Assembly: GCA_964636295.1 (NCBI GenBank)
Contig: CAZWQY010000004.1
Span: 42,677-106,676 of the forward strand
Source of the DNA: an uncultured Lentisphaeraceae bacterium
Lineage (GTDB): Bacteria; Verrucomicrobiota; Kiritimatiellia; RFP12; UBA1067
Direction: 5' to 3'
Length of the DNA stretch: 64,000 nt
Below the pieces are notes generated by a model. The model was not told the origin of the DNA. It ran no database searches and saw only the letters and a program-made list of their open reading frames with translations. Shown here in pieces: positions 17,707 through 26,681 of the stretch; positions within the stretch are counted from its first letter, which is position 1; the number at the start of each line of letters is the position of its first letter. The position numbers were made by a program, and so were the translations under genes.

Positions 17707-20514
17707 CTATTGTGGCAAATCTCTTCGCACTCGCTCCTCTTGTTTCTTCAAGTTTTCCAAATATGAGGTGCTGTCAGAGCCTTCCTCGAAATTGTCCAAA
17801 TCCATGCATTTTGTTGCATTAATTGCATCTGTAATCCGTATCAAGCCTGGCACAGCCTCCAATCCTCCAGACGCTTCACTCGCCCCTGGAGGAGACAAGT
17901 ACCCCAATAGGTTTTTAACCACTTCCTTGATCAAATCCAAAACGCCCTTCCACGACATTCCGTCTGGATCGGTTTTATTAACAGGATCTCCCTCGCAGAA
18001 CGCATACAAGTTCAAGCCGCCGGAAAGGCCGATGGGGTCTTTCGAGAGCCAGCGGCCGGTGACGGGGTCATACCACCGCATGCGAAAGTTGACGAGGCCC
18101 GTCGCCGCCGAGCACTCGCGCCCCTGAAAACGGTAGCGCACCGCGCGAAGCCCCGCCGCGCGCGCGGCGACCTCTTCCGACAGCACGTTGCCCCAAGCGT
18201 CGTACGTCCAGCGCGCGACGACGGCGCCGTGCGCGTCCGCATAACCCCAGACCGTGCCCTGGACGTCCGTCAGCGCGGCATACGTGCGGGCGCCTATTCG
18301 CACGGCAAGCAATCGATCAATTCCCTCGCCCCACTCGTACGAGCGCAGCACGTTCCCCTCGGCATCGACGTCGGCAATGACCTGCCAGTTCTCATCGTAG
18401 ACGTGCCGCTCCGTCCCCTCCGCGTTCGTCGTCGCGACGCGGCGACCGAGCGCGTCATACGCATACGACTCGGCGAAGACACCATTCGTGGCAACGCGAG
18501 CAAGCTGGTACCGGCCATTCCATGTGAGGTCCCATGTGTCCGAACCGCGCACGATGCGCGTCACGCATCCCGCCGCATCATGTCCATACGAGCCGCCCGT
18601 CCATGTCGCGAGACGGTCGCCTTGCCCAAGCACATAGGCGACATCATCCCCGGAGCCGCCCCGCTTCGCCGTGCGGTTGCCCGCCGCGTCGTAGGCGTAG
18701 GAGACGTCGCCGTCGGCCACGAGCCGATCCAGCCCGTCGTAGGCATAGGCACGGTCAAAGCGGTTCGTGCCGAGCGCATGCCGCCGCGCGACGATGCGCC
18801 CGACGACATCGTATTCGTAGGCGAAGCCGCCGAGGGCCGTCCCTCCCGGCACCGTCCACGTGATGTTCGTCACGCGGTCCATGACGTCGTAGCCATACGT
18901 CATCGTGACGCCGTTCGCGTTCGTGACCGCCGCGAGCAGCCCGTTCCACGGACAGTAGCCAAACGAGAGAGTTCCTGCGGACGAATCCGCGCGTACGCGC
19001 CGTCCCGCCTTGTCGTAGGCATACTGCGCCGTTCCCGCGACGGCGACGCGCGACGTCACGGCGCCGCCGTTCGAGCGGACATACCGCACCCAGCTCCCGT
19101 CCACGCCGCAGGAGGCGTCGAGCCAACCAGTCGCGGCATCGTAGACGTTCGAGACGAGGCCCGCCGCATTCGCCGCCGAGGTGAGGAGCCCATCGCCGTC
19201 GTAGCCGAAACGGAGCGTGTCGCCCGGGTAGGCGACCGAGGAGAGGTTCGCGTCCTGGCCATAGCCGTAATTGACGGACGTGCCGTCGAAGCGCGTCTCG
19301 GATGCGACCATCCGTCCGAGCGCATACCGGCGCGACAAGACCTGCCCCTCCAGGTTCGTGACCGCGACGACGCGCTCGTTCTCGTCGAGGACATACGACT
19401 CGGCGCGGCGGCCAAGCGGATCGCCAATCGCGACGACGTTGAGTTGCGGATCGTGCGAAATCGCGTAGAGCGCGTTCGTCACGCCGCCACTGACGCGTGC
19501 AGCATGAACAGGGAGACCGAGCGTCCAACGGTAGATGTCCTCGCGTCCGAGCGCATCCACACGGCTGACGGCCATTGCGCCCTCGCCGTCGTAAGCGAGA
19601 ACCGCCGACGTTCCGTCGGGATAGGAGACCACCGTCGGCTTCCCCCTCCAGTTGTTGACGAACGAGGTCTTTCGCCGCCTTCCATCCGGCCCTGGCCACG
19701 TGACGGCGGCGACATGGCCCAACGCATCGTAGGCATAATCGACGCGCGGCAAGCCCTCCACCTCAATTGCGGCGACGAAGCCGTCGGCGCCATAGGAGAC
19801 ATCCGTCCACCCGCCGTCCGGGGCGAGGATGCCCGGACATGGCCGTTCGTGTCGCAGATGCGTCGTCAGCGCACAGGGGCCGTTCGTCCGAACTGTCCAG
19901 GCGACATTTCCCCCGCTGTCATAGGATGTGAGCAGAAACTCCGAGCCCGTCTGCCGCGCCGTTTCACGCCGTCTCGAATCGCGGATTCGAGTCACACGAA
20001 CATCGTCCAGAATCGTCTCGCCATCGCCTGCGATACCCAGACCTCGGAACCATCCGGAATCGCCCATCTGAAGACCTCGTTCCGCAAGAACTCCGTCCAC
20101 ATACAAATCCCATAGTCTCTTTGGGTAATCAAGCCGAAATGTCACGCGAGACCACTCGCCAAGGCAGACTTTCCGCACGACATTCGTCCTCCAAGCATAT
20201 CCGTCCAACACGAGCACGGAGCCGTCTGCCGCAAAGCAAATGCCGCCCGCAAGGCCCGTGTTCATCAGATCAGAGAGGCTTGTCGCCTGCGCAAGCGGGT
20301 AGAGATCAACCCAGACGACCTGATTGGCATTCGTGACATCATGCTCGACAAAAACAGAGACCTCTTTGGCCTCGTCGGATTCACCCGACAGGCGCAACGC
20401 AGCCCCGCCAGTATGGGCCGTCCGCGTCTGCACGACCGCCCCCTCAGAGAAAGACGGTCGGTGCCCTCGCCGCCGTCGCCCACAAAACCGCCCGAAAGAA
20501 AGTCCGCGATTCAC
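17707..20514 (-). CDS. RHS/YD-repeat polymorphic toxin with LamG-like N-terminal region and short unassigned C-terminal tip
   Basis: Many YD repeats (YAYDALGHV, YGYDVMDRV, YEYDVVGRI, YAYDGLDRL, YAYDAAGNR); RHS core end RWLSKDPIGLSGGLNLYAFCEGDPVNKTDPDGM followed by an ~85-aa AT-richer tail; GTG start at 20514 probably not the native start. Confidence 0.88.
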   Translation of the reverse strand: MNRGLSFGRFCGRRRRGHRPSFSEGAVVQTRTAHTGGAALRLSGESDEAKEVSVFVEHDVTNANQVVWVDLYPLAQATSLSDLMNTGLAGGICFAADGSVLVLDGYAWRTNVVRKVCLGEWSRVTFRLDYPKRLWDLYVDGVLAERGLQMGDSGWFRGLGIAGDGETILDDVRVTRIRDSRRRETARQTGSEFLLTSYDSGGNVAWTVRTNGPCALTTHLRHERPCPGILAPDGGWTDVSYGADGFVAAIEVEGLPRVDYAYDALGHVAAVTWPGPDGRRRKTSFVNNWRGKPTVVSYPDGTSAVLAYDGEGAMAVSRVDALGREDIYRWTLGLPVHAARVSGGVTNALYAISHDPQLNVVAIGDPLGRRAESYVLDENERVVAVTNLEGQVLSRRYALGRMVASETRFDGTSVNYGYGQDANLSSVAYPGDTLRFGYDGDGLLTSAANAAGLVSNVYDAATGWLDASCGVDGSWVRYVRSNGGAVTSRVAVAGTAQYAYDKAGRRVRADSSAGTLSFGYCPWNGLLAAVTNANGVTMTYGYDVMDRVTNITWTVPGGTALGGFAYEYDVVGRIVARRHALGTNRFDRAYAYDGLDRLVADGDVSYAYDAAGNRTAKRGGSGDDVAYVLGQGDRLATWTGGSYGHDAAGCVTRIVRGSDTWDLTWNGRYQLARVATNGVFAESYAYDALGRRVATTNAEGTERHVYDENWQVIADVDAEGNVLRSYEWGEGIDRLLAVRIGARTYAALTDVQGTVWGYADAHGAVVARWTYDAWGNVLSEEVAARAAGLRAVRYRFQGRECSAATGLVNFRMRWYDPVTGRWLSKDPIGLSGGLNLYAFCEGDPVNKTDPDGMSWKGVLDLIKEVVKNLLGYLSPPGASEASGGLEAVPGLIRITDAINATKCMDLDNFEEGSDSTSYLENLKKQEERVRRDLPQ

Positions 20515-20744: not shown

Positions 20745-20750
20745 ATTATA
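20745..20750 (-). promoter_or_regulatory. TATAAT -10 box upstream of the RHS locus (~75 nt leader with GAGGGAG)
   Basis: Minus strand cgattgcgtTATAATgcgcg. Confidence 0.4.
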
Positions 20751-20859
20751 ACGCAATCGTCCGAGCGTTGTCAACGGGAGACGCAAAGGAAAGTTGTATC
20801 ATCTCGTGGCGCAGTTTCAAACAGAAGATACGTGCCCTAACAGCTGCGAAGTCTCGCAC

Positions 20860-20971: not shown

Positions 20972-20998
20972 TTCTGAAGGGGGTCGGGAGGTTCTTTT

Positions 20999-21178
20999 AA
21001 ACCACGAATTGACACAGATTGGCACGGATTAGAATGACCCCCCAAAATGCATGGGACGGAGTTGAAACGCATGAGAGAGAAAAAGAATTCCGCACTGAAT
21101 TCTCATTTCGTGATGGACAACGACCAAAACCCAGCGCAAAGAATTCTGACAAATCCGTGTTAATCCGTGAAATCCGTT
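20999..21178. mobile_element. MITE-like element of the CACGAAT/ATTCGTG family (copy E1)
   Basis: Left arm CCACGAATTGACACAGATTGGCACGGATT, right arm AATCCGTGTTAATCCGTGAAATCCGTT in inverted orientation, ~115 bp non-coding core. Confidence 0.6.
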
Positions 21179-21270
21179 GCAGCCACGCCAATCGTGAAAA
21201 AGGCCGCGCCCAACCGCACGCCCTTCGCGCCGCCGAATCCAACCGCAGTACCGACATTCAACTTGACCAT
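21160..21270 (-). CDS. 36-codon ORF with its own promoter and RBS, terminating inside MITE E1 (truncated gene or small hydrophobic peptide)
   Basis: TATAAT at 21322..21327, GGAGG 5 nt before ATG 21270; MVKLNVGTAVGFGGAKGVRLGAAFFTIGVAATDFTD*. Confidence 0.35.
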   Translation of the reverse strand: MVKLNVGTAVGFGGAKGVRLGAAFFTIGVAATDFTD

Positions 21271-21403
21271 TGCAACCTCCAAAACGGTGTTACCCGAAAC
21301 ATTTTTTAGATTTTGGCGGCTATTATATGCTTTTTTTTTTCTCTCATTCTGCCACCATGTCTCTCTCGAATCCCATCTTGAGGGCGGCCTTGCCGACAGC
21401 CGC

Positions 21404-21433
21404 TTGACGGGGACGCGCGCATTGTGATACACT
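21404..21433 (+). promoter_or_regulatory. Sigma70-type promoter TTGACG-N18-(TG)ATACACT for the aroF-pheA leader
   Basis: Read directly; predicted TSS ~21440, 7 nt before the leader ATG. Confidence 0.55.
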
Positions 21434-21446
21434 ACGCGCCGTTTCT

Positions 21447-21521
21447 ATGAATCAGCGTTATTACTTTTTCGCTTACGTGAACTTCGCGTTTATTCCGCGC
21501 GGGGCGCTCTTGTCGTACTGA
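21447..21521 (+). CDS. Tyr/Phe-rich leader peptide (24 codons) of an aromatic amino acid attenuator
   Basis: ATG AAT CAG CGT TAT TAC TTT TTC GCT TAC GTG AAC TTC GCG TTT ATT CCG CGC GGG GCG CTC TTG TCG TAC TGA = MNQRYYFFAYVNFAFIPRGALLSY; 8 of 24 residues aromatic. Confidence 0.6.
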   Translation: MNQRYYFFAYVNFAFIPRGALLSY

Positions 21522-21550
21522 TGAAAGGCAGTTAGCTGATTCGGCAACAA

Positions 21551-21582
21551 GGCGGCCCCGCAGAAAAGCGGGGCCGTTTTTG
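21551..21582 (+). terminator. Intrinsic terminator (attenuator) upstream of aroF
   Basis: CGGCCCCGC-AGAAAA-GCGGGGCCG followed by TTTTTG. Confidence 0.8.
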
Positions 21583-21592
21583 ATTCTCAAAA

Positions 21593-21642
21593 CCAAACCT
21601 CCAAACCCCCAAACCTCCAAACCCCTAAACCCCCAAACCTCC
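21593..21642. repeat. CCAAACCT-family 8-nt tandem array (about 6 units) abutting the aroF ATG
   Basis: CCAAACCT CCAAACCC CCAAACCT CCAAACCC CTAAACCC CCAAACCT CC, then ATG at 21644. Confidence 0.9.
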
Positions 21643-21643
21643 C

Positions 21644-22666
21644 ATGATCATCCTTCTCAAGAAAAACGCGGATTCGGGCCAGGTCGAGAACCTGAAGAGC
21701 CTGCTCCGCTCGCGCGGCGTCGAGCCGCATGAATCCGTCGGCTCGCTGCAGACCGTCATCGGCTGCGTCGGCGATGTCGCGCACATCGACCCCGGCATTC
21801 TCGAAGCCCTGGACGTCGTCGAGCAAGTCCAGCGCGTGCAGGAGCCGTACAAGGCCGCGAACCGCAAGTTCCATCCCGAAGACTCGGCGATCGACTGCGG
21901 CGGCGTGACGATCGGCGGCGGCGGATTCGGCGTCATCGCGGGCCCCTGCAGCGTCGAGTCGGAGGAGCAGGTCGTCGGCATCGCGAAGGCCGTGAAGGCG
22001 GCGGGCGCGACGCTTCTCCGGGGCGGCGCGTTCAAGCCGCGCACGTCGCCCTACGCCTTCCAGGGCCTCGGCAAGGTCGGGCTGGACATGCTTTCGACGG
22101 CGAAGAAGGAGACGGGGCTTCCGATCGTCACGGAACTCATGGACTTCCGCGACATCGAGCTCTTCAACGACGTGGACGTCATCCAGATCGGCGCGCGCAA
22201 TATGCAGAACTTCAACCTCCTCAAGGAAGTCGGCGCCTACACGAAGAAGCCGATCCTGCTCAAGCGCGGCATGAGCGCGACGCTGCAGGAACTCCTGATG
22301 AGCGCCGAATACGTCATGGCCTCCGGCAACCCGAACGTCATTCTCTGCGAACGCGGCATCCGCACGTTCGAGACGGCCCTGCGCAACACGCTCGACCTCG
22401 GCGTCGTGACGATGCTCCGGCGGCTCTCGCACCTGCCGATCGTCATCGATCCGTCGCACGCGACGGGCCATGCCTACATGGTCGATTCGGTCGCCGTCGC
22501 CGCGACGGCCATCGGCGCGGACGGGCTTATCATCGAAGTGCACAACGACCCGCCGCACGCGAAGTGCGACGGCGCGCAGAGCCAGACGCCCGACATGTTC
22601 GCGCGCACGATGGAGAAGGTGCGCGACGTGCGCGCGCTCGTCACGAAGTGGAACGAAAGGACGTAA
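21644..22666 (+). CDS. aroF: 3-deoxy-7-phosphoheptulonate (DAHP) synthase, class I-beta with N-terminal regulatory domain
   Basis: 340 aa; ...GGGGFGVIAGPCSVESEEQVVGIAKAVKAAGATLLRGGAFKPRTSPYAFQGLG... Confidence 0.9.
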   Translation: MIILLKKNADSGQVENLKSLLRSRGVEPHESVGSLQTVIGCVGDVAHIDPGILEALDVVEQVQRVQEPYKAANRKFHPEDSAIDCGGVTIGGGGFGVIAGPCSVESEEQVVGIAKAVKAAGATLLRGGAFKPRTSPYAFQGLGKVGLDMLSTAKKETGLPIVTELMDFRDIELFNDVDVIQIGARNMQNFNLLKEVGAYTKKPILLKRGMSATLQELLMSAEYVMASGNPNVILCERGIRTFETALRNTLDLGVVTMLRRLSHLPIVIDPSHATGHAYMVDSVAVAATAIGADGLIIEVHNDPPHAKCDGAQSQTPDMFARTMEKVRDVRALVTKWNERT

Positions 22667-22669
22667 GCC

Positions 22670-23839
22670 ATGGCCACCTCCCTGAACGACCTGAAGACGA
22701 AAGACCTGGGGCAGTGCCGCCAGGAGATCGACGCCATCGACGACGAGATCACGCGCCTCATGGAGGCGCGGCTCGCCGTCTCCGAGCGCGTCGCCGAGCT
22801 GAAGCGCGCGGCCGGCAGTCCGGTGACGGATCCGGCGCGCGAGCGGGCCATCCTCACGCGCGTGACGGATCAGGTGCCGCCGGAACACATGATCGGCGTC
22901 CGTCAGCTCTTCACGACGCTCTTCGGCCTCTCGAAGGCCCTCCAGCGCCGGCGGATCGGCGCGGGCGGCGCGCTTCTGGACGAGTTGGCGCGGGCCGCGA
23001 CGTCCGAACGCTTCCCGCAGAAGGCCGTCGTCGCGTGCGCGGGCGTCGAGGGCTCGTACGCGCAGCAAGCGACGTCGCTCCTCTTCCCGATTCCGACGAT
23101 TCTCTACTTCAAGGGATTCGAGAAGGTGTTCGAGGCCGTCGAAAAGGGGCTGTGCCCCTACGGCGTGCTGCCGGTCGAGAACTCGGCGGCCGGCTCCGTC
23201 GCGGCGGTCTACGACCTCATGCGCCAGCACCGCTTCCACATCGTGCGCGCGCTGCGGCTCAAAGTTGACCATGTCCTTCTGGCGCCGAAGGGCGTGACGC
23301 TGGCGGACGTCCGCACGATCGCGAGCCATCCCCACGCGCTCGCGCAGTGCGCGCGCTTCCTCAAGGCGCACCCGGAGATCCACGCGGAGCCAGGGCCCAA
23401 CACGGCCGTCGCGGCGAAGGATCTCGCGGTCCGCGGCGCGACCGACCGGGCGGTCATCGCCTCGCGGGCTTGCGCAGAGCTCTACGGGCTGGACATCATC
23501 GCCGAGGACATCTGCGACGCGGCCTACAACTACACGCGATTCATCTGCATCGCAAAAGACCTCGAAGTGCGGGCGGACGCGAACAAGATCAGCCTCATGC
23601 TGAGTCTGCCGCATCGCCCCGGCGCGCTGAACGGCATCATCGCCAAGTTCGCCGCAATCGACGTGAACCTCACGAAGCTCGAATCCCGTCCCGTTCCGGG
23701 ACGCGACTTCGAGTTCAGCTTCGTCTTCGACTTCGAGGCGAACGCGAGCGACGAGCCGGTGCGCGCGCTTCTTGCCGAACTTTCGTCCGACCCGGAGATC
23801 GAACACTTCACCTTCCTCGGCGCGTTCGGGGAGAAATGA
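22670..23839 (+). CDS. pheA: Bifunctional chorismate mutase / prephenate dehydratase
   Basis: 389 aa; N-terminal CM helix (LGQCRQEIDAIDDEITRLMEARLAVSERVAELK), PDT domain, C-terminal ACT domain. Confidence 0.9.
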   Translation: MATSLNDLKTKDLGQCRQEIDAIDDEITRLMEARLAVSERVAELKRAAGSPVTDPARERAILTRVTDQVPPEHMIGVRQLFTTLFGLSKALQRRRIGAGGALLDELARAATSERFPQKAVVACAGVEGSYAQQATSLLFPIPTILYFKGFEKVFEAVEKGLCPYGVLPVENSAAGSVAAVYDLMRQHRFHIVRALRLKVDHVLLAPKGVTLADVRTIASHPHALAQCARFLKAHPEIHAEPGPNTAVAAKDLAVRGATDRAVIASRACAELYGLDIIAEDICDAAYNYTRFICIAKDLEVRADANKISLMLSLPHRPGALNGIIAKFAAIDVNLTKLESRPVPGRDFEFSFVFDFEANASDEPVRALLAELSSDPEIEHFTFLGAFGEK

Positions 23840-23873: not shown

Positions 23874-23882
23874 TGCTATAAT
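23874..23882 (+). promoter_or_regulatory. Extended -10 box TGCTATAAT, 6 nt before ATG 23889
   Basis: gatatGCTATAATacgcgcATGATG. Confidence 0.5.
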
Positions 23883-23926
23883 ACGCGCATGATGAAGAGA
23901 CTTCTCAGACGGGGGGCGCATCGGGC

Positions 23927-24508
23927 ATGATCGCGCTTCTTGCCAGCATCCTGATTGCGACGAACGCAACGCCGCAGGAGCTTGTCGCGCAGTGCCGCGC
24001 GATGATTCCGGCGAACGCCGAGTTCACGGGGCGAATCGTCCTCCGAAATCGGCGGGGGGTCGTCAAGGCCGAGCATGGCTATGTCCTCACGCGCACGGCC
24101 GGGCGGACGGCGCTCGTCCTCGACGGCCAGCCCTACGCGCAACCGACGGATTCGGCGCGCGCGGCCGACGGCATTCGCGGCACGGACGTGACGTGGAGCG
24201 ACCTCGCGCTCGACTACCTGAACTGGCGCGACGTCTCCTTTGACGCGGAACGCGAGGGCGAGACCGTCCACGGGCAAGTCTGCGCCGTCGTCGTCCTGCG
24301 CAACGGCGCGCGGACGGTGCGGGCGTGGATCGACCGCAAGACGGGCGCGCTTCTGCAGGCCGAGGAGTTCGCGGGCGAGCGGCGCATCCGCCGCCTGTGG
24401 GGCGCGCGCCTCAAGAAGTTCGGCGAACGCTGGATGGCCAATGTCCTGGAGGTCGAGACCGAAGGGTCCGGCCATCGTACAAAAATCATCGTGGAGACAC
24501 TCAAATGA
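23927..24508 (+). CDS. LolA-like outer-membrane lipoprotein-sorting family protein (true start may be 23889 via a G-run frame change)
   Basis: 193 aa; TDVTWSDLALDYLNW motif typical of the family; see the G6-tract finding. Confidence 0.55.
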   Translation: MIALLASILIATNATPQELVAQCRAMIPANAEFTGRIVLRNRRGVVKAEHGYVLTRTAGRTALVLDGQPYAQPTDSARAADGIRGTDVTWSDLALDYLNWRDVSFDAEREGETVHGQVCAVVVLRNGARTVRAWIDRKTGALLQAEEFAGERRIRRLWGARLKKFGERWMANVLEVETEGSGHRTKIIVETLK

Positions 24509-25383
24509 AAAAACTGCTCAAAATCATCCTATGGTCGGTCGTGATTCTCGCGGCCCTTGCCCTTCTGCTCGTTGCGACGCTGCCGCTCTGGCTCGGCCCG
24601 GTCGCCCGCCCGATCGCCAATTGTCTGGGGCCTCGGATCACGCAGACGGACTTCCACCTCGGTGACCTGTCGCTGAATCCCTACACGGGGCGGCTGTCCG
24701 TCGGCGACCTGCGGGTCGGCAATCCGGCGGGATACTCCGAGCCGACCGCGCTGAGCCTCGGCAGCCTCGTCGTCGTGCTGGACGGCGCGAGCCTCGTGGG
24801 GGACTGCCTCCACGTCCGGGAAATCACGCTGAAGGACTGCTTCGTCTCCTATCTCTATGGCGGCGAGAACAGCATCGACAACCTGACGCAGCTCAAAATG
24901 AACGTCGCGGGCGGCGAAGACGAGTCGGAGGCCGCTGAACCGGCGACCGAGACGGAGGAAACCGTCCCGGCGAAGGCCGAGGAGAAGGAACTCAAGGTCG
25001 TCGTCGATCGCCTGTCGGTTTCGGGCGTGCGCGTGAAACTTCAGGTGCTGACGATTCCCGTGCCGCCGATCACGCTGACGGATCTCGGCAAGAAGTCCAA
25101 CGGCCTCACGCTCGCCGAACTGACGACGCAAGTCTGGGAGGCGATTCTGAAAGGCGCGACCAAGGCCGGCGACGGCGCGGCGGCGCTCGGCGGACTGATC
25201 AACACGGCGACCGGCCAGCTCGGCACCGCGCTTCAGGAAGCCGGCGGCACGACGGGCAATTCGCTGAAGTCCGCGTCGGATTCGCTTCAGTCGGCCGCCG
25301 ACGCGGCCGGCGAGAGCGTGAAGAAGGTCGGCGAAGACATGAAGCGGACGGCGGACGCCGTCAAGAAGCTCTTCGGCCGGTGA
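24504..25383 (+). CDS. Membrane-anchored AsmA/DUF748-like protein
   Basis: MKKLLKIILWSVVILAALALLLVATLPLWLG...; ATGA overlap with the upstream stop; start moved from 24325. Confidence 0.5.
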
Positions 25384-26681
25384 AACGGCATCTGATTGGC
25401 ATTGGCGGCGTCGGCATGAGCGCGCTCGCGACGACGCTCCTGAAACTGGGCGACACCGTCACGGGCGCGGATCGGACGCGGGACACGCCTAACGTTCGCT
25501 TTCTTGAGTCGCTGGGCGTCGCGGTCTTTCCGGACGACGGCAGCGGCATTGACGCAACGACGGACGAGGTCATCGTCTCGACGGCCATCGAGGAGACGAA
25601 CGCGGGTCTGCAGGCGGCGCATGCGCGCGGCATCCCCGTCACGCACCGGGCGAAGGCTCTCGCACGCGCGTTGCAAGGTCACAGGCTCGTCGCCGTCGTC
25701 GGGACATGCGGCAAATCGACGGTAACGGCCATGCTGGGGCATATCCTGTCCGAATGCGGGCTGGATCCGCTCTGCGTGAACGGCGCGAACGTGCCGGGGT
25801 GGGACGGCGCCGTCCGATTCGGACAGGGCGCGTATGCCGTCGCGGAAGTGGACGAAAGCGACAAGTCGCTCGTCGCGTTCAGCCCCTATGCCGCCATTGT
25901 CACCAACGCCTCGGCCGACCACTACTCCAAGGAGGAGATGGACGCGGTCTTCGATGCCTTCATCGCGGACTGCCAAGGACCCGTCATCGACGGCAGAGGC
26001 CCGTTGGACACCTGGACATTTGGGCTGTTGGAGGTTCCCGTGCCGGGACAGCACAACCGGCAAAACGCCGAACTGGCCGTGCGCATGGCCGTCGCGCTCG
26101 GCGTGGCCCCCGAAGCGGCCGTCGCCGCGATGAAGACGTTCAAGGGCGTCGAGCGTCGCCTCCAGCGCATCCTCCCATCAAACGTCCAAACCTCCAAACT
26201 CCCAAACCTCCAAACGTCCAAACCTCCAAACTCCCAAACTCCTAAACCGTCCCCTGCCGTCTACGACGACTACGCCCACAATCCGGAAAAGATTAAGGCC
26301 ATGTGGACGACGCTCGCGGCGGAGTATCCGCAGGGCCTCTGCGTGATCTGGCGGCCGCATGGATATGCCCCGCTTCGCAAGATGTGCGCCGCGCTGGCGA
26401 CAATGTTCGCCGAGACGATCCGTCCGCAGGACAGGTTGCTGCTTCTGCCCGTCTACGACGCGGGCGGCACGACCGACCGCTCGATCAATTCGGATGCCTT
26501 GGCCAAGGCGATTGCCGACGCAGACGCCGCCGTCGGCGCGCGCGTGTCAGTTGTCGCCGATCTGGACGCGGCGCAGGACTGGTGTGCCGCGCATCCGACG
26601 GCATTCGGCTGTTTCGTGACATGCGGCGCACGCGACCCAGGGCTGCCCGTGCTGGCCCAACGGCTCGCGCAGATGGGCTAA
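25380..26681 (+). CDS. murC: UDP-N-acetylmuramate--L-alanine ligase family protein (MurC/Mpl)
   Basis: 433 aa; IGIGGVGMSALA, VVGTCGKSTVTAM, DDYAHNPEKI; GTGA overlap with the upstream gene. Confidence 0.8.
   Translation: MKRHLIGIGGVGMSALATTLLKLGDTVTGADRTRDTPNVRFLESLGVAVFPDDGSGIDATTDEVIVSTAIEETNAGLQAAHARGIPVTHRAKALARALQGHRLVAVVGTCGKSTVTAMLGHILSECGLDPLCVNGANVPGWDGAVRFGQGAYAVAEVDESDKSLVAFSPYAAIVTNASADHYSKEEMDAVFDAFIADCQGPVIDGRGPLDTWTFGLLEVPVPGQHNRQNAELAVRMAVALGVAPEAAVAAMKTFKGVERRLQRILPSNVQTSKLPNLQTSKPPNSQTPKPSPAVYDDYAHNPEKIKAMWTTLAAEYPQGLCVIWRPHGYAPLRKMCAALATMFAETIRPQDRLLLLPVYDAGGTTDRSINSDALAKAIADADAAVGARVSVVADLDAAQDWCAAHPTAFGCFVTCGARDPGLPVLAQRLAQMG
26178..26249. repeat. CCAAACCT-family tandem array, 9 x 8 nt = 72 nt, in frame inside the murC-like gene
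   Basis: TCAAACGT CCAAACCT CCAAACTC CCAAACCT CCAAACGT CCAAACCT CCAAACTC CCAAACTC CTAAACCG, translated SNVQTSKLPNLQTSKPPNSQTPKP. Confidence 0.9.

Follow-up and report, generated by a model that had tools for sequence, protein, structure and literature searches.

A candidate leader-peptide attenuator upstream of the aroF-pheA operon in an uncultured Kiritimatiellia bacterium

RESULTS

A candidate attenuator precedes the aroF-pheA operon

The window analysed here is a 64,000-nucleotide (nt) stretch of contig CAZWQY010000004.1 (positions 42,677 to 106,676) from an uncultured Lentisphaeraceae bacterium, placed in the Kiritimatiellia by GTDB. It carries the operon aroF-pheA, encoding a 3-deoxy-D-arabinoheptulosonate 7-phosphate (DAHP) synthase and a chorismate mutase-prephenate dehydratase, and the DNA in front of aroF combines the features of the attenuator class, namely a short open reading frame (ORF) with aromatic codons, an intrinsic terminator, an antiterminator exclusive with it and a hairpin over the regulatory codons. 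Judging from sequence and comparative evidence, this leader is very probably (at roughly 85%) a ribosome-mediated transcription attenuator that controls the two-gene operon. The original prediction, made from the nucleotide sequence alone, had proposed such a device, and every element that it listed was found in its place (Table 1).

The leader ORF comprises 24 codons and a stop, and reading of the sequence recovered the four Tyr and four Phe codons, including the run YYFF, that had been assigned to it. Among the 408 ATG-started ORFs of 15-40 codons on both strands of the window, it ranked first by aromatic fraction (0.33, the next being 0.24) and was the only one with at least four aromatic residues in a row. 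The window has a G+C content of 62.6%, and the leader ORF uses TTT twice and TAT once, two codons absent from aroF and pheA, where Phe is encoded by TTC in 28 of 28 cases (TTT, 0/28) and Tyr by TAC in 12 of 12 (TAT, 0/12). The ORF begins 197 nt and ends 122 nt from the aroF ATG, so the earlier figure of about 125 nt upstream fits when measured from the stop and not from the start.

Three alternative helices define a four-region leader

Folding recovered the predicted terminator, with both arms, the AGAAAA loop and the T5 run, as a hairpin of -24.1 kcal/mol (z = -5.8), and 0 of 200 shuffled sequences were as good. The antiterminator segments were all present as well: GCGGGGC (21499..21505) repeats the terminator 3' arm letter for letter and has GCCCCGC as its partner, and UUGUCG (21510..21515) lies opposite CGGCAA (21542..21547). 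The transcript ending before region 4 folds as a long 2:3 antiterminator, while the full leader folds as a 1:2 hairpin plus the terminator. The 1:2 hairpin, pairing CUUCGCGU at 21482..21489 with GCGCGGGG at 21497..21504, had been overlooked in the original prediction, whose antiterminator and terminator stood; with it the classical four-region layout is complete. Region 1 runs from the third base of N12 through F13 and A14 to the first base of F15, and region 2 from codons P17-R18-G19-A20 onward. As isolated helices, 1:2, 2:3 and 3:4 have energies of -10.0, -29.4 and -24.1 kcal/mol, respectively. The duplex between the 3' part of the ORF and region 3 (-26 kcal/mol) was compared with a null of -17.1 +/- 4.1 kcal/mol drawn from 18,229 genomic windows, 1.7% of which equalled it; taken alone, the strength of this duplex is suggestive only.

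A pattern scanner for promoters and terminators run on the window did not list the terminator hairpin, which folding displays clearly; the miss probably reflects greedy stem extension with G-T pairs that swallows the T-run. That the hairpin terminates an upstream gene was ruled out: going upstream, the first ORF to have a plausible start (21257..20997) is divergent, on the minus strand, and without a Pfam match. A search of the window with the covariance model R1, described below, found no second copy of the attenuator.

The leader is conserved upstream of aroF in relatives

The closest relatives of the DAHP synthase (74-90% identity) are encoded in Kiritimatiellia metagenome-assembled genomes (MAGs) of rumen and gut origin and in a single MAG of the Lentisphaeria. 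Their upstream DNA was collected through genome and metagenome scans plus twelve exact-homologue look-ups, and an equivalent aromatic ORF of 20-26 codons was found in 15 distinct relatives, 14 of Kiritimatiellia type and one the Lentisphaeria MAG. The original prediction had named an aromatic mini-ORF with a terminator upstream of aroF in relatives as the sign to look for, and this is what was observed. Designating loci by L numbers, leader ORF, hairpin and T-run occur together in L003, L004, L086, L089, L161/162, L163, L164/165, L166, L167, L168, L185/186 and L009. The covariance model R1, built from the leaders of the first relatives and then used to search for more, added three leaders that head longer operons: L002 (leader ... 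aroA-aroF), L006 (leader, trpB-like, aroF, tyrA) and L081/83/84 (leader, pheA, aroF). Hence the conserved leaders sit upstream of aroF or head operons containing it.

The leader peptides of the relatives, exemplified by MNNNRYFYFSFFYFAFTKRGVS, MNNQFYFWAGFYFAYRVRGV, MTRTAYFFFGYWYFAFEKRGAASCC, MSNRLYYFWYFGFAYPTRGV and MKRFSYYWYYGFAYQGRGEVCSYR, share the aromatic bias. Phe, Tyr and Trp make up 117 of the 354 codons in the 15 leaders (33%), compared with 4-7% in aroF and pheA of the window; at least one Trp codon occurs in 12 of the 15 and none in the window leader. In all 16 elements, that of the window included, an in-frame ATG is followed by a frame that stays open through region 2.

Leader content was also set beside operon content. 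The window leader (Y4 F4 W0) precedes aroF-pheA; that of L168 (Y6 F2 W1) precedes aroF, a prephenate dehydrogenase gene and further genes; and that of L006 (W2 Y3 F0) precedes a trpB-like gene, aroF and a prephenate dehydrogenase gene. On this anecdotal footing, leader composition appears to follow the operon branch, as expected of an end-product sensor. The L006 leader, MNKIYTSWRWYYGIASGDVAAVR (L006:100-237), from a Kiritimatiellia-type MAG, contains no aromatic codons other than those for Trp and Tyr, and the operon behind it (L006:242-3575) encodes a TrpB-like pyridoxal phosphate-dependent enzyme (trpB2), AroF and prephenate dehydrogenase (tyrA).

Compensatory changes maintain the alternative pairings

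RNAalifold, applied to a 13-sequence MAFFT alignment, predicted the 1:2 hairpin and the terminator without structural input, and pairs were counted for the three helices, as specified by us, in alignments of 13 or 16 sequences. The 1:2 helix was paired in 95% of cells, with compensatory change at 2 pairs. The 2:3 helix was paired in 86% of cells in the 13-sequence alignment (A1) and in 85% with 16 sequences, with 5 pairs changed on both sides in either case, and the 3:4 helix in 93-94%, with 7-8 pairs changed on both sides; for 2:3 in alignment A1 and for 3:4, 0 of 500 shuffles reached the observed value. Sliding the partners by 1-3 columns lowered the pairing to 34-73%.

The antiterminator pairing claimed at the outset is thus kept among the relatives, and two of them exemplify compensation within it. 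In L004, region 2 (GCGGGGUUU), region 3 (AAACCCCGC) and region 4 (GUGGGGUUU) have changed together on all three strands (UUU / AAA / UUU). In L003, region 2 reads GCGGAG (GGA, versus GGG elsewhere) and region 3 CUCCGC, so that an A66-U124 pair replaces G-C in the antiterminator only, the terminator retaining a G-U pair. The 1:2 hairpin of L089 is preserved through a CG-to-GC swap.

Two kinds of constraint can be told apart in the leader. The motif CGCGGGG occurs in 12 leaders with zero synonymous variation, and its frame differs in L002 and L081 (aCG CGG GGc versus CGC GGG G); invariance across two frames indicates a constraint on the RNA and not on the peptide. The aromatic positions, by comparison, interchange Phe, Tyr and Trp as well as synonyms (TTT 34, TTC 20, TAC 36, TAT 15, TGG 12), and such free swaps indicate a constraint on what is decoded.

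The predicted switch lies where the aromatic cluster ends

The effect of ribosome position was modelled by masking from -18 to +12 around the A site and folding the transcript as it stands before synthesis of region 4. In the window leader, region 3 was paired with upstream sequence with a probability of 0.9 when the A site stood at codons 1-14, of 0.6 at F15 and of 0.1-0.2 from I16 to the stop, so masked folding of this shortened transcript places the switch at codons 15-16, where the aromatic cluster ends. The held-to-free step also coincides with the end of that cluster in L003, L086, L089, L168 and L185, and it is less sharp in other relatives.

The proposed mechanism runs as follows. Transcription would begin a few nt before the AUG at 21447, and a ribosome would translate the leader close behind RNA polymerase. 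With ample charged tRNA-Phe and tRNA-Tyr, the ribosome would pass the aromatic cluster and cover region 2 (codons 17-23 to the stop), leaving region 3 free to pair with region 4 once the latter is made, and the hairpin and U5 would end transcription at about 21581. When Phe or Tyr is scarce, the ribosome would stall on Y5-F15, region 1 would be covered or melted and region 2 exposed; pairing of region 2 with region 3 would then form the antiterminator in place of the terminator, and the polymerase would continue into aroF-pheA. In the absence of a ribosome, the 1:2 hairpin is expected to be the earliest to form and to promote termination. The parts of this scheme that we infer are the transcription start site, ORF translation, kinetic coupling and the aminoacyl-tRNA response.

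The leader ORF may start on a leaderless or near-leaderless transcript

The predicted TTGACG-N18 promoter was present, with a spacer of 18 nt between TTGACG and TACACT, and the promoter scan added an upstream TG that makes its -10 element an extended one. A TTGAC(A/G) motif lies equally far upstream of the leader in L086, L163, L164, L166 and L168. Judged by the extended -10, which ends 13 nt before the leader ATG, the transcription start site would lie a few nt before AUG 21447, and this short spacing suggests a leaderless or near-leaderless start, with the leader ORF probably translated from a leaderless or very short-leadered transcript. In the relatives, TGnTAYAMT is 7 nt from the ATG in L002, 9 in L006 and L081, 10 in L163 and 11 in L004 and L168; in L086, L089, L164 and L166 it lies 21-27 nt before the ATG, with a GGAG/AAGGA-type element resembling a Shine-Dalgarno (SD) sequence in between.

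Of the 14 TGnTAYMMT sites found across the window, 6 precede by 6-10 nt the ATG of an ORF of 251-846 codons and are usually followed by an ACGCGC-like sequence (Table 1), and by a crude count an SD-like 4-mer precedes 17 of 56 long ORFs. Leaderless mRNAs are therefore probably common in the source organism, to judge from these promoter spacings.

Several further promoter arrangements were seen. An element TGCTATAAT-ACGCGC-ATG (23889..23930, +), just 3' of pheA, opens two overlapping ORFs of 12-13 codons and stands directly before a LolA-like gene at 23927, whose promoter it probably represents. A sigma-70 consensus without mismatch on the minus strand (20745..20774; TTGACA, 18 nt, TATAAT; 12/12) lies about 230 nt upstream of the start of a gene for an RHS/YD-repeat protein of 935 amino acids (17707..20514, -). 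In two relatives the leader comes directly after a tRNA gene, tRNA-Ala(CGC) at L185:208-283 and tRNA-Arg(TCT) at L168:1178-1253, and between the L185 tRNA-Ala and the leader ATG no separate promoter is visible.

Aromatic upstream ORFs accompany a DAHP synthase subfamily

A wider scan sought ATG ORFs of 10-48 codons with at least 5 aromatics making up at least 25%, and then a hairpin of -8 kcal/mol or lower with T at 5 or more of the 8 nt that follow. Such an element stood directly before the DAHP synthase gene of the subfamily with a ferredoxin-like (FXD) domain at 77 of the 175 fetched loci that had enough upstream DNA, as against about 25 comparable aromatic ORFs elsewhere in about 2 Mb, counting both strands. 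Clostridia with an aromatic upstream ORF (uORF) include Oscillibacter valericigenes (AP012044; MSTFTFAAEYRYFSFTYYFGKAYFGLAENECV), Lachnospiraceae, Christensenellaceae and Ruminococcus, and none of the Collinsella loci fetched had one. The Clostridial uORF loci are L010, L011, L015, L020, L025-L027, L030, L032, L035-L037, L039, L041, L042, L046 and L057-L060, and many of L090-L160 also have an aromatic uORF just upstream of the DAHP synthase match. These Firmicute leaders each have an SD as well as a terminator-like hairpin that ends in a T-rich tail, and their sequence is unlike that of the Kiritimatiellia leaders; R1 matched them weakly (20-28 bits, E = 0.02-0.4), and Rfam matched no family in ten Clostridial uORF loci. 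Tentatively, and with less confidence than doubt, the window element and these uORFs might belong to a large and so far undescribed cross-phylum Phe/Tyr/Trp attenuator family that travels with the FXD-type DAHP synthase gene in Kiritimatiellia, Lentisphaeria and many Clostridia (Oscillospiraceae, Lachnospiraceae, Christensenellaceae) and is leaderless in Kiritimatiellia. Such a spread over Clostridia, Kiritimatiellia and Lentisphaeria, apparently not reaching Collinsella, would point to joint horizontal transfer of gene and attenuator.

The window element lies outside known Rfam families

At gathering thresholds, Rfam matched no leader, T-box (RF00230) or riboswitch family in the whole window, and on the 16 related loci tRNA genes were the only matches. 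In E-value mode on 21300..21700, Phe_leader (RF01859) scored 18.6 bits (E = 1.2; gathering threshold 55) and aligned with the terminator only. With no match or a sub-threshold one, membership of Phe_leader or another curated family, a T-box and a known riboswitch were ruled out.

Weighing the evidence

Several observations weigh against attenuation by a translating ribosome. The window leader ORF has no SD, and its -10-to-ATG gap of 13 nt exceeds the spacing of 6-10 nt at the six candidate leaderless genes; lacking an SD, its translation hinges on the leaderless or near-leaderless start proposed above. In equilibrium folding of the full-length leader the terminator forms wherever the ribosome is placed, and therefore the choice would have to be made kinetically, as it is in classical attenuators. 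When no ribosome is present, the window transcript cut before region 4 favours 2:3 over 1:2 (P = 0.9), so termination in the absence of translation is not guaranteed. As for the comparative evidence, six core pairs of the antiterminator are near-invariant and hold no covariation information, the compensatory events come mostly from four divergent sequences (L003, L004, L009 and L089), the T-runs of several relatives are short or broken (e.g. GCCGTTTCGATTT), and a leader is missing directly upstream of many close homologues of the DAHP synthase, which are inside other operons.

Some of these observations would suit attenuation set by a TRAP- or PyrR-like RNA-binding protein, or by a small molecule binding the U/A-rich triplet run, with the ORF left untranslated: there is no SD, the triplets UAU UAC UUU UUC could be a binding site, and the equilibrium 2:3 helix needs no ribosome. 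Yet an in-frame ATG and a frame open through region 2 are found in 16 of 16 elements, the substitutions preserve the amino-acid class (TTY, TAY, TGG) instead of a nucleotide motif, and leader composition tracks the operon, the W/Y-only leader of L006 standing before trpB2 and tyrA. With Rfam matching no riboswitch or T-box in the window or the 16 related loci, and with the missing SD explained by how common putative leaderless genes are in the window, we regard this possibility as improbable, the best placed of the alternatives.

The 52-nt spacer in front of the aroF ATG is C-rich, G-free, unstructured and without an SD, and the CCAAACCY repeat that fills it might instead exert the main control as a Rho-loading site or a translation enhancer, the hairpin being secondary. 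This is a slightly poorer prospect again: the repeat is missing from almost all relatives, in which ordinary GGAG-type SDs stand 22-35 nt past the terminator, and its in-frame recurrence in a Mur-ligase ORF makes it look slippage-prone or mobile and not a dedicated signal.

There is little to recommend a constitutive or leaky terminator that merely damps aroF transcription beside a chance ORF that senses nothing. It would agree with the full-length equilibrium fold being always the terminator, and in GC-rich DNA a partner for region 3 as good as region 2 turns up in 1.7% of random windows; however, the leader ORF stands far apart from the other small ORFs (408 in all), 15 relatives keep it and both alternative pairings with compensatory changes, and aromatic uORFs with T-tailed hairpins occur at 77 of 175 DAHP synthase loci, against roughly 25 comparable ORFs elsewhere in about 2 Mb of both strands. 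A functional small hydrophobic or aromatic protein encoded by chance upstream of aroF, to which the motif [FY]F.[FY]..RG common to the relatives could point, is just as hard to credit, for the conserved peptide positions are exactly RNA regions 1 and 2, with third positions fixed and two reading frames used, length, termini and remaining sequence vary freely, and a terminator and aromatic-pathway genes always follow the ORF.

Features and gene neighbourhood

The operon consists of aroF and pheA only, because a new extended -10 promoter lies near 23875. CCAAACCY matches number 18 in the window against 6.3 expected. A second set of about 6 copies (26186..26235, +) lies in frame in an ORF of the Mur-ligase family (25380..26681), in the stretch separating the middle domain from the C-terminal one, and encodes ...LPSNVQTSKLPNLQTSKPPNSQTPKPSP...; since the period is not a multiple of 3, gaining or losing copies would alter the reading frame.

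Table 1. Coordinates of the leader elements, operon genes and related features in the window
Feature	Coordinates	Strand	Basis or remark
-35 hexamer TTGACG	21404..21409	+	promoter scan
Extended -10 TGaTACACT	21425..21433 (TG 21425-26; TACACT 21428..21433)	+	promoter scan flags TG
Leader ORF, 24 codons + stop, ATG start, MNQRYYFFAYVNFAFIPRGALLSY	21447..21521	+	ORF listing, sequence reading
Regulatory codon cluster Y5 Y6 F7 F8. Y10.. F13. F15	21459..21491	+	sequence reading
Region 1, CUUCGCGU, 5' arm of 1:2 hairpin, overlaps codons N12-F15	21482..21489	+	minimum free energy folds, RNAalifold
Region 2, GCGCGGGGC extended by CUCUUGUCG, pairs with region 1 or region 3	21497..21515	+	folds, pair counts
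Region 3, CGGCAACAAGG-CGGCCCCGC, terminator 5' arm and antiterminator partner	21542..21561	+	folds, pair counts
Terminator 5' arm CGGCCCCGC	21553..21561	+	followed by loop AGAAAA
Region 4, terminator 3' arm GCGGGGCCG	21568..21576	+	folds, pair counts
T5 run of intrinsic terminator	21577..21581	+	sequence reading
Tandem repeat CCAAACCY x6.4, G-free, fills spacer up to aroF ATG	21593..21644	+	TRF
aroF, DAHP synthase with N-terminal FXD domain	21644..22666	+	Pfam PF18152 + PF00793; NCBIfam NF006421
pheA, chorismate mutase, prephenate dehydratase, ACT domain	22670..23839	+	Pfam, NCBIfam
Six ORF starts just 3' of an extended -10 box (TGnTATAAT)	ATGs 47984 (+), 60760 (-), 58986 (-), 35546 (-), 12857 (-), 3150 (-)		

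DISCUSSION

The mechanism proposed here is of the known pheL/trpL type, and aromatic leaders before DAHP synthase genes are already known; what is new is the phylum, the probable leaderless leader ORF and the broad association with one DAHP synthase subfamily. In the E. coli trpL leader, the textbook four-region attenuator, region 1 likewise lies over the regulatory codons and region 2 just before the stop, and a ribosome at the stop versus one that has stalled decides the outcome. Unlike in trpL, region 2 of the window leader is inside the ORF, five codons before the stop, and its 2:3 helix is far stabler than 1:2 (-29 vs -10 kcal/mol). Mycobacteria have leaderless regulatory small ORFs whose mRNA begins at or beside the start codon, and the window leader, in a different phylum, resembles them in its nearness to the transcript start as estimated from the -10-to-ATG spacing only.

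The pheL-pheA leader of E. coli has a short ORF with end-product codons, alternative helices and a terminator before the chorismate mutase/prephenate dehydratase gene (PMC11802643, PMC3082878), and pheL is in essence confined to gamma-proteobacteria, apart from a few candidates in Bacteroides and Desulfobacterium (PMC3082878). The window leader shares with it the end-product-codon ORF, the 1:2, 2:3 and 3:4 helices and the intrinsic terminator upstream of a pheA-type gene, and in this respect the pheL-type logic of the original prediction is supported. It differs in showing no sequence or structure homology to RF01859 beyond the alignable terminator, in carrying mixed Tyr/Phe codons (with Trp in relatives) in place of a Phe run, in its proposed control of the pathway-entry enzyme AroF as well, in its lack of an SD with a start that appears near-leaderless, and in its Kiritimatiellia host.

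Such logic is not new for aroF, two earlier systems having shown it. In Corynebacterium glutamicum, the leader aroR with Phe-Tyr-Phe lies upstream of aroF, and ribosome stalling raises read-through (Neshat et al. 2014, as summarized in PMC11802643), only Phe limitation being effective according to the same summary. By that functional description, on which the comparison is made, aroR resembles the window leader as a mixed Phe/Tyr leader peptide upstream of a DAHP synthase operon, and differs from it in belonging to Actinomycetota and in having 3 aromatic codons, against 8 in the window leader, whose operon has pheA as partner. The second, uORFC-13-1, is a comparative-genomics prediction (Brewer et al. 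2021, PMC8632094), described there as a Phe-codon uORF just before an intrinsic terminator and exclusively upstream of aroF, with a ribosome-binding site and a U-run encoding at least one Phe; the description names Acholeplasma and environmental sequences as its only sources. Compared at the level of this description, the window uORF likewise has Phe codons before a terminator upstream of aroF, and it differs in lacking an SD and in its host outside Acholeplasma; in the Rfam scans, no locus matched a model of uORFC-13-1.

Literature searches for attenuators in Verrucomicrobia or Kiritimatiellota returned nothing relevant, consistent with the statement of the original prediction that none has been described for this lineage, and a search for aromatic leader peptides in Clostridia was equally empty. 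As far as these searches go, no regulatory RNA mechanism had previously been proposed to act on amino-acid biosynthesis in Kiritimatiellota, PVC-group bacteria associated with gut and rumen and known mostly from MAGs, about whose regulation almost nothing is known. The conceptual advance is modest, the mechanism being textbook. The 16-sequence alignment, together with model R1, offers a means of annotating such leaders in MAGs, where gene callers miss ORFs of 20-26 codons, and the Clostridial aromatic uORFs and the frequent putative leaderless promoters offer leads on transcription-translation coupling outside model organisms.

The FXD domain has an allosteric feedback role in DAHP synthase of the Thermotoga type, and that of the window enzyme presumably adds allosteric feedback here. 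If the leader is truly leaderless, the first ribosome would load at the emerging 5' end, which would make transcription-translation coupling obligatory. In this bacterium, a single translational sensor of aromatic aminoacyl-tRNA would preside over both the pathway-entry and the Phe-branch enzymes.

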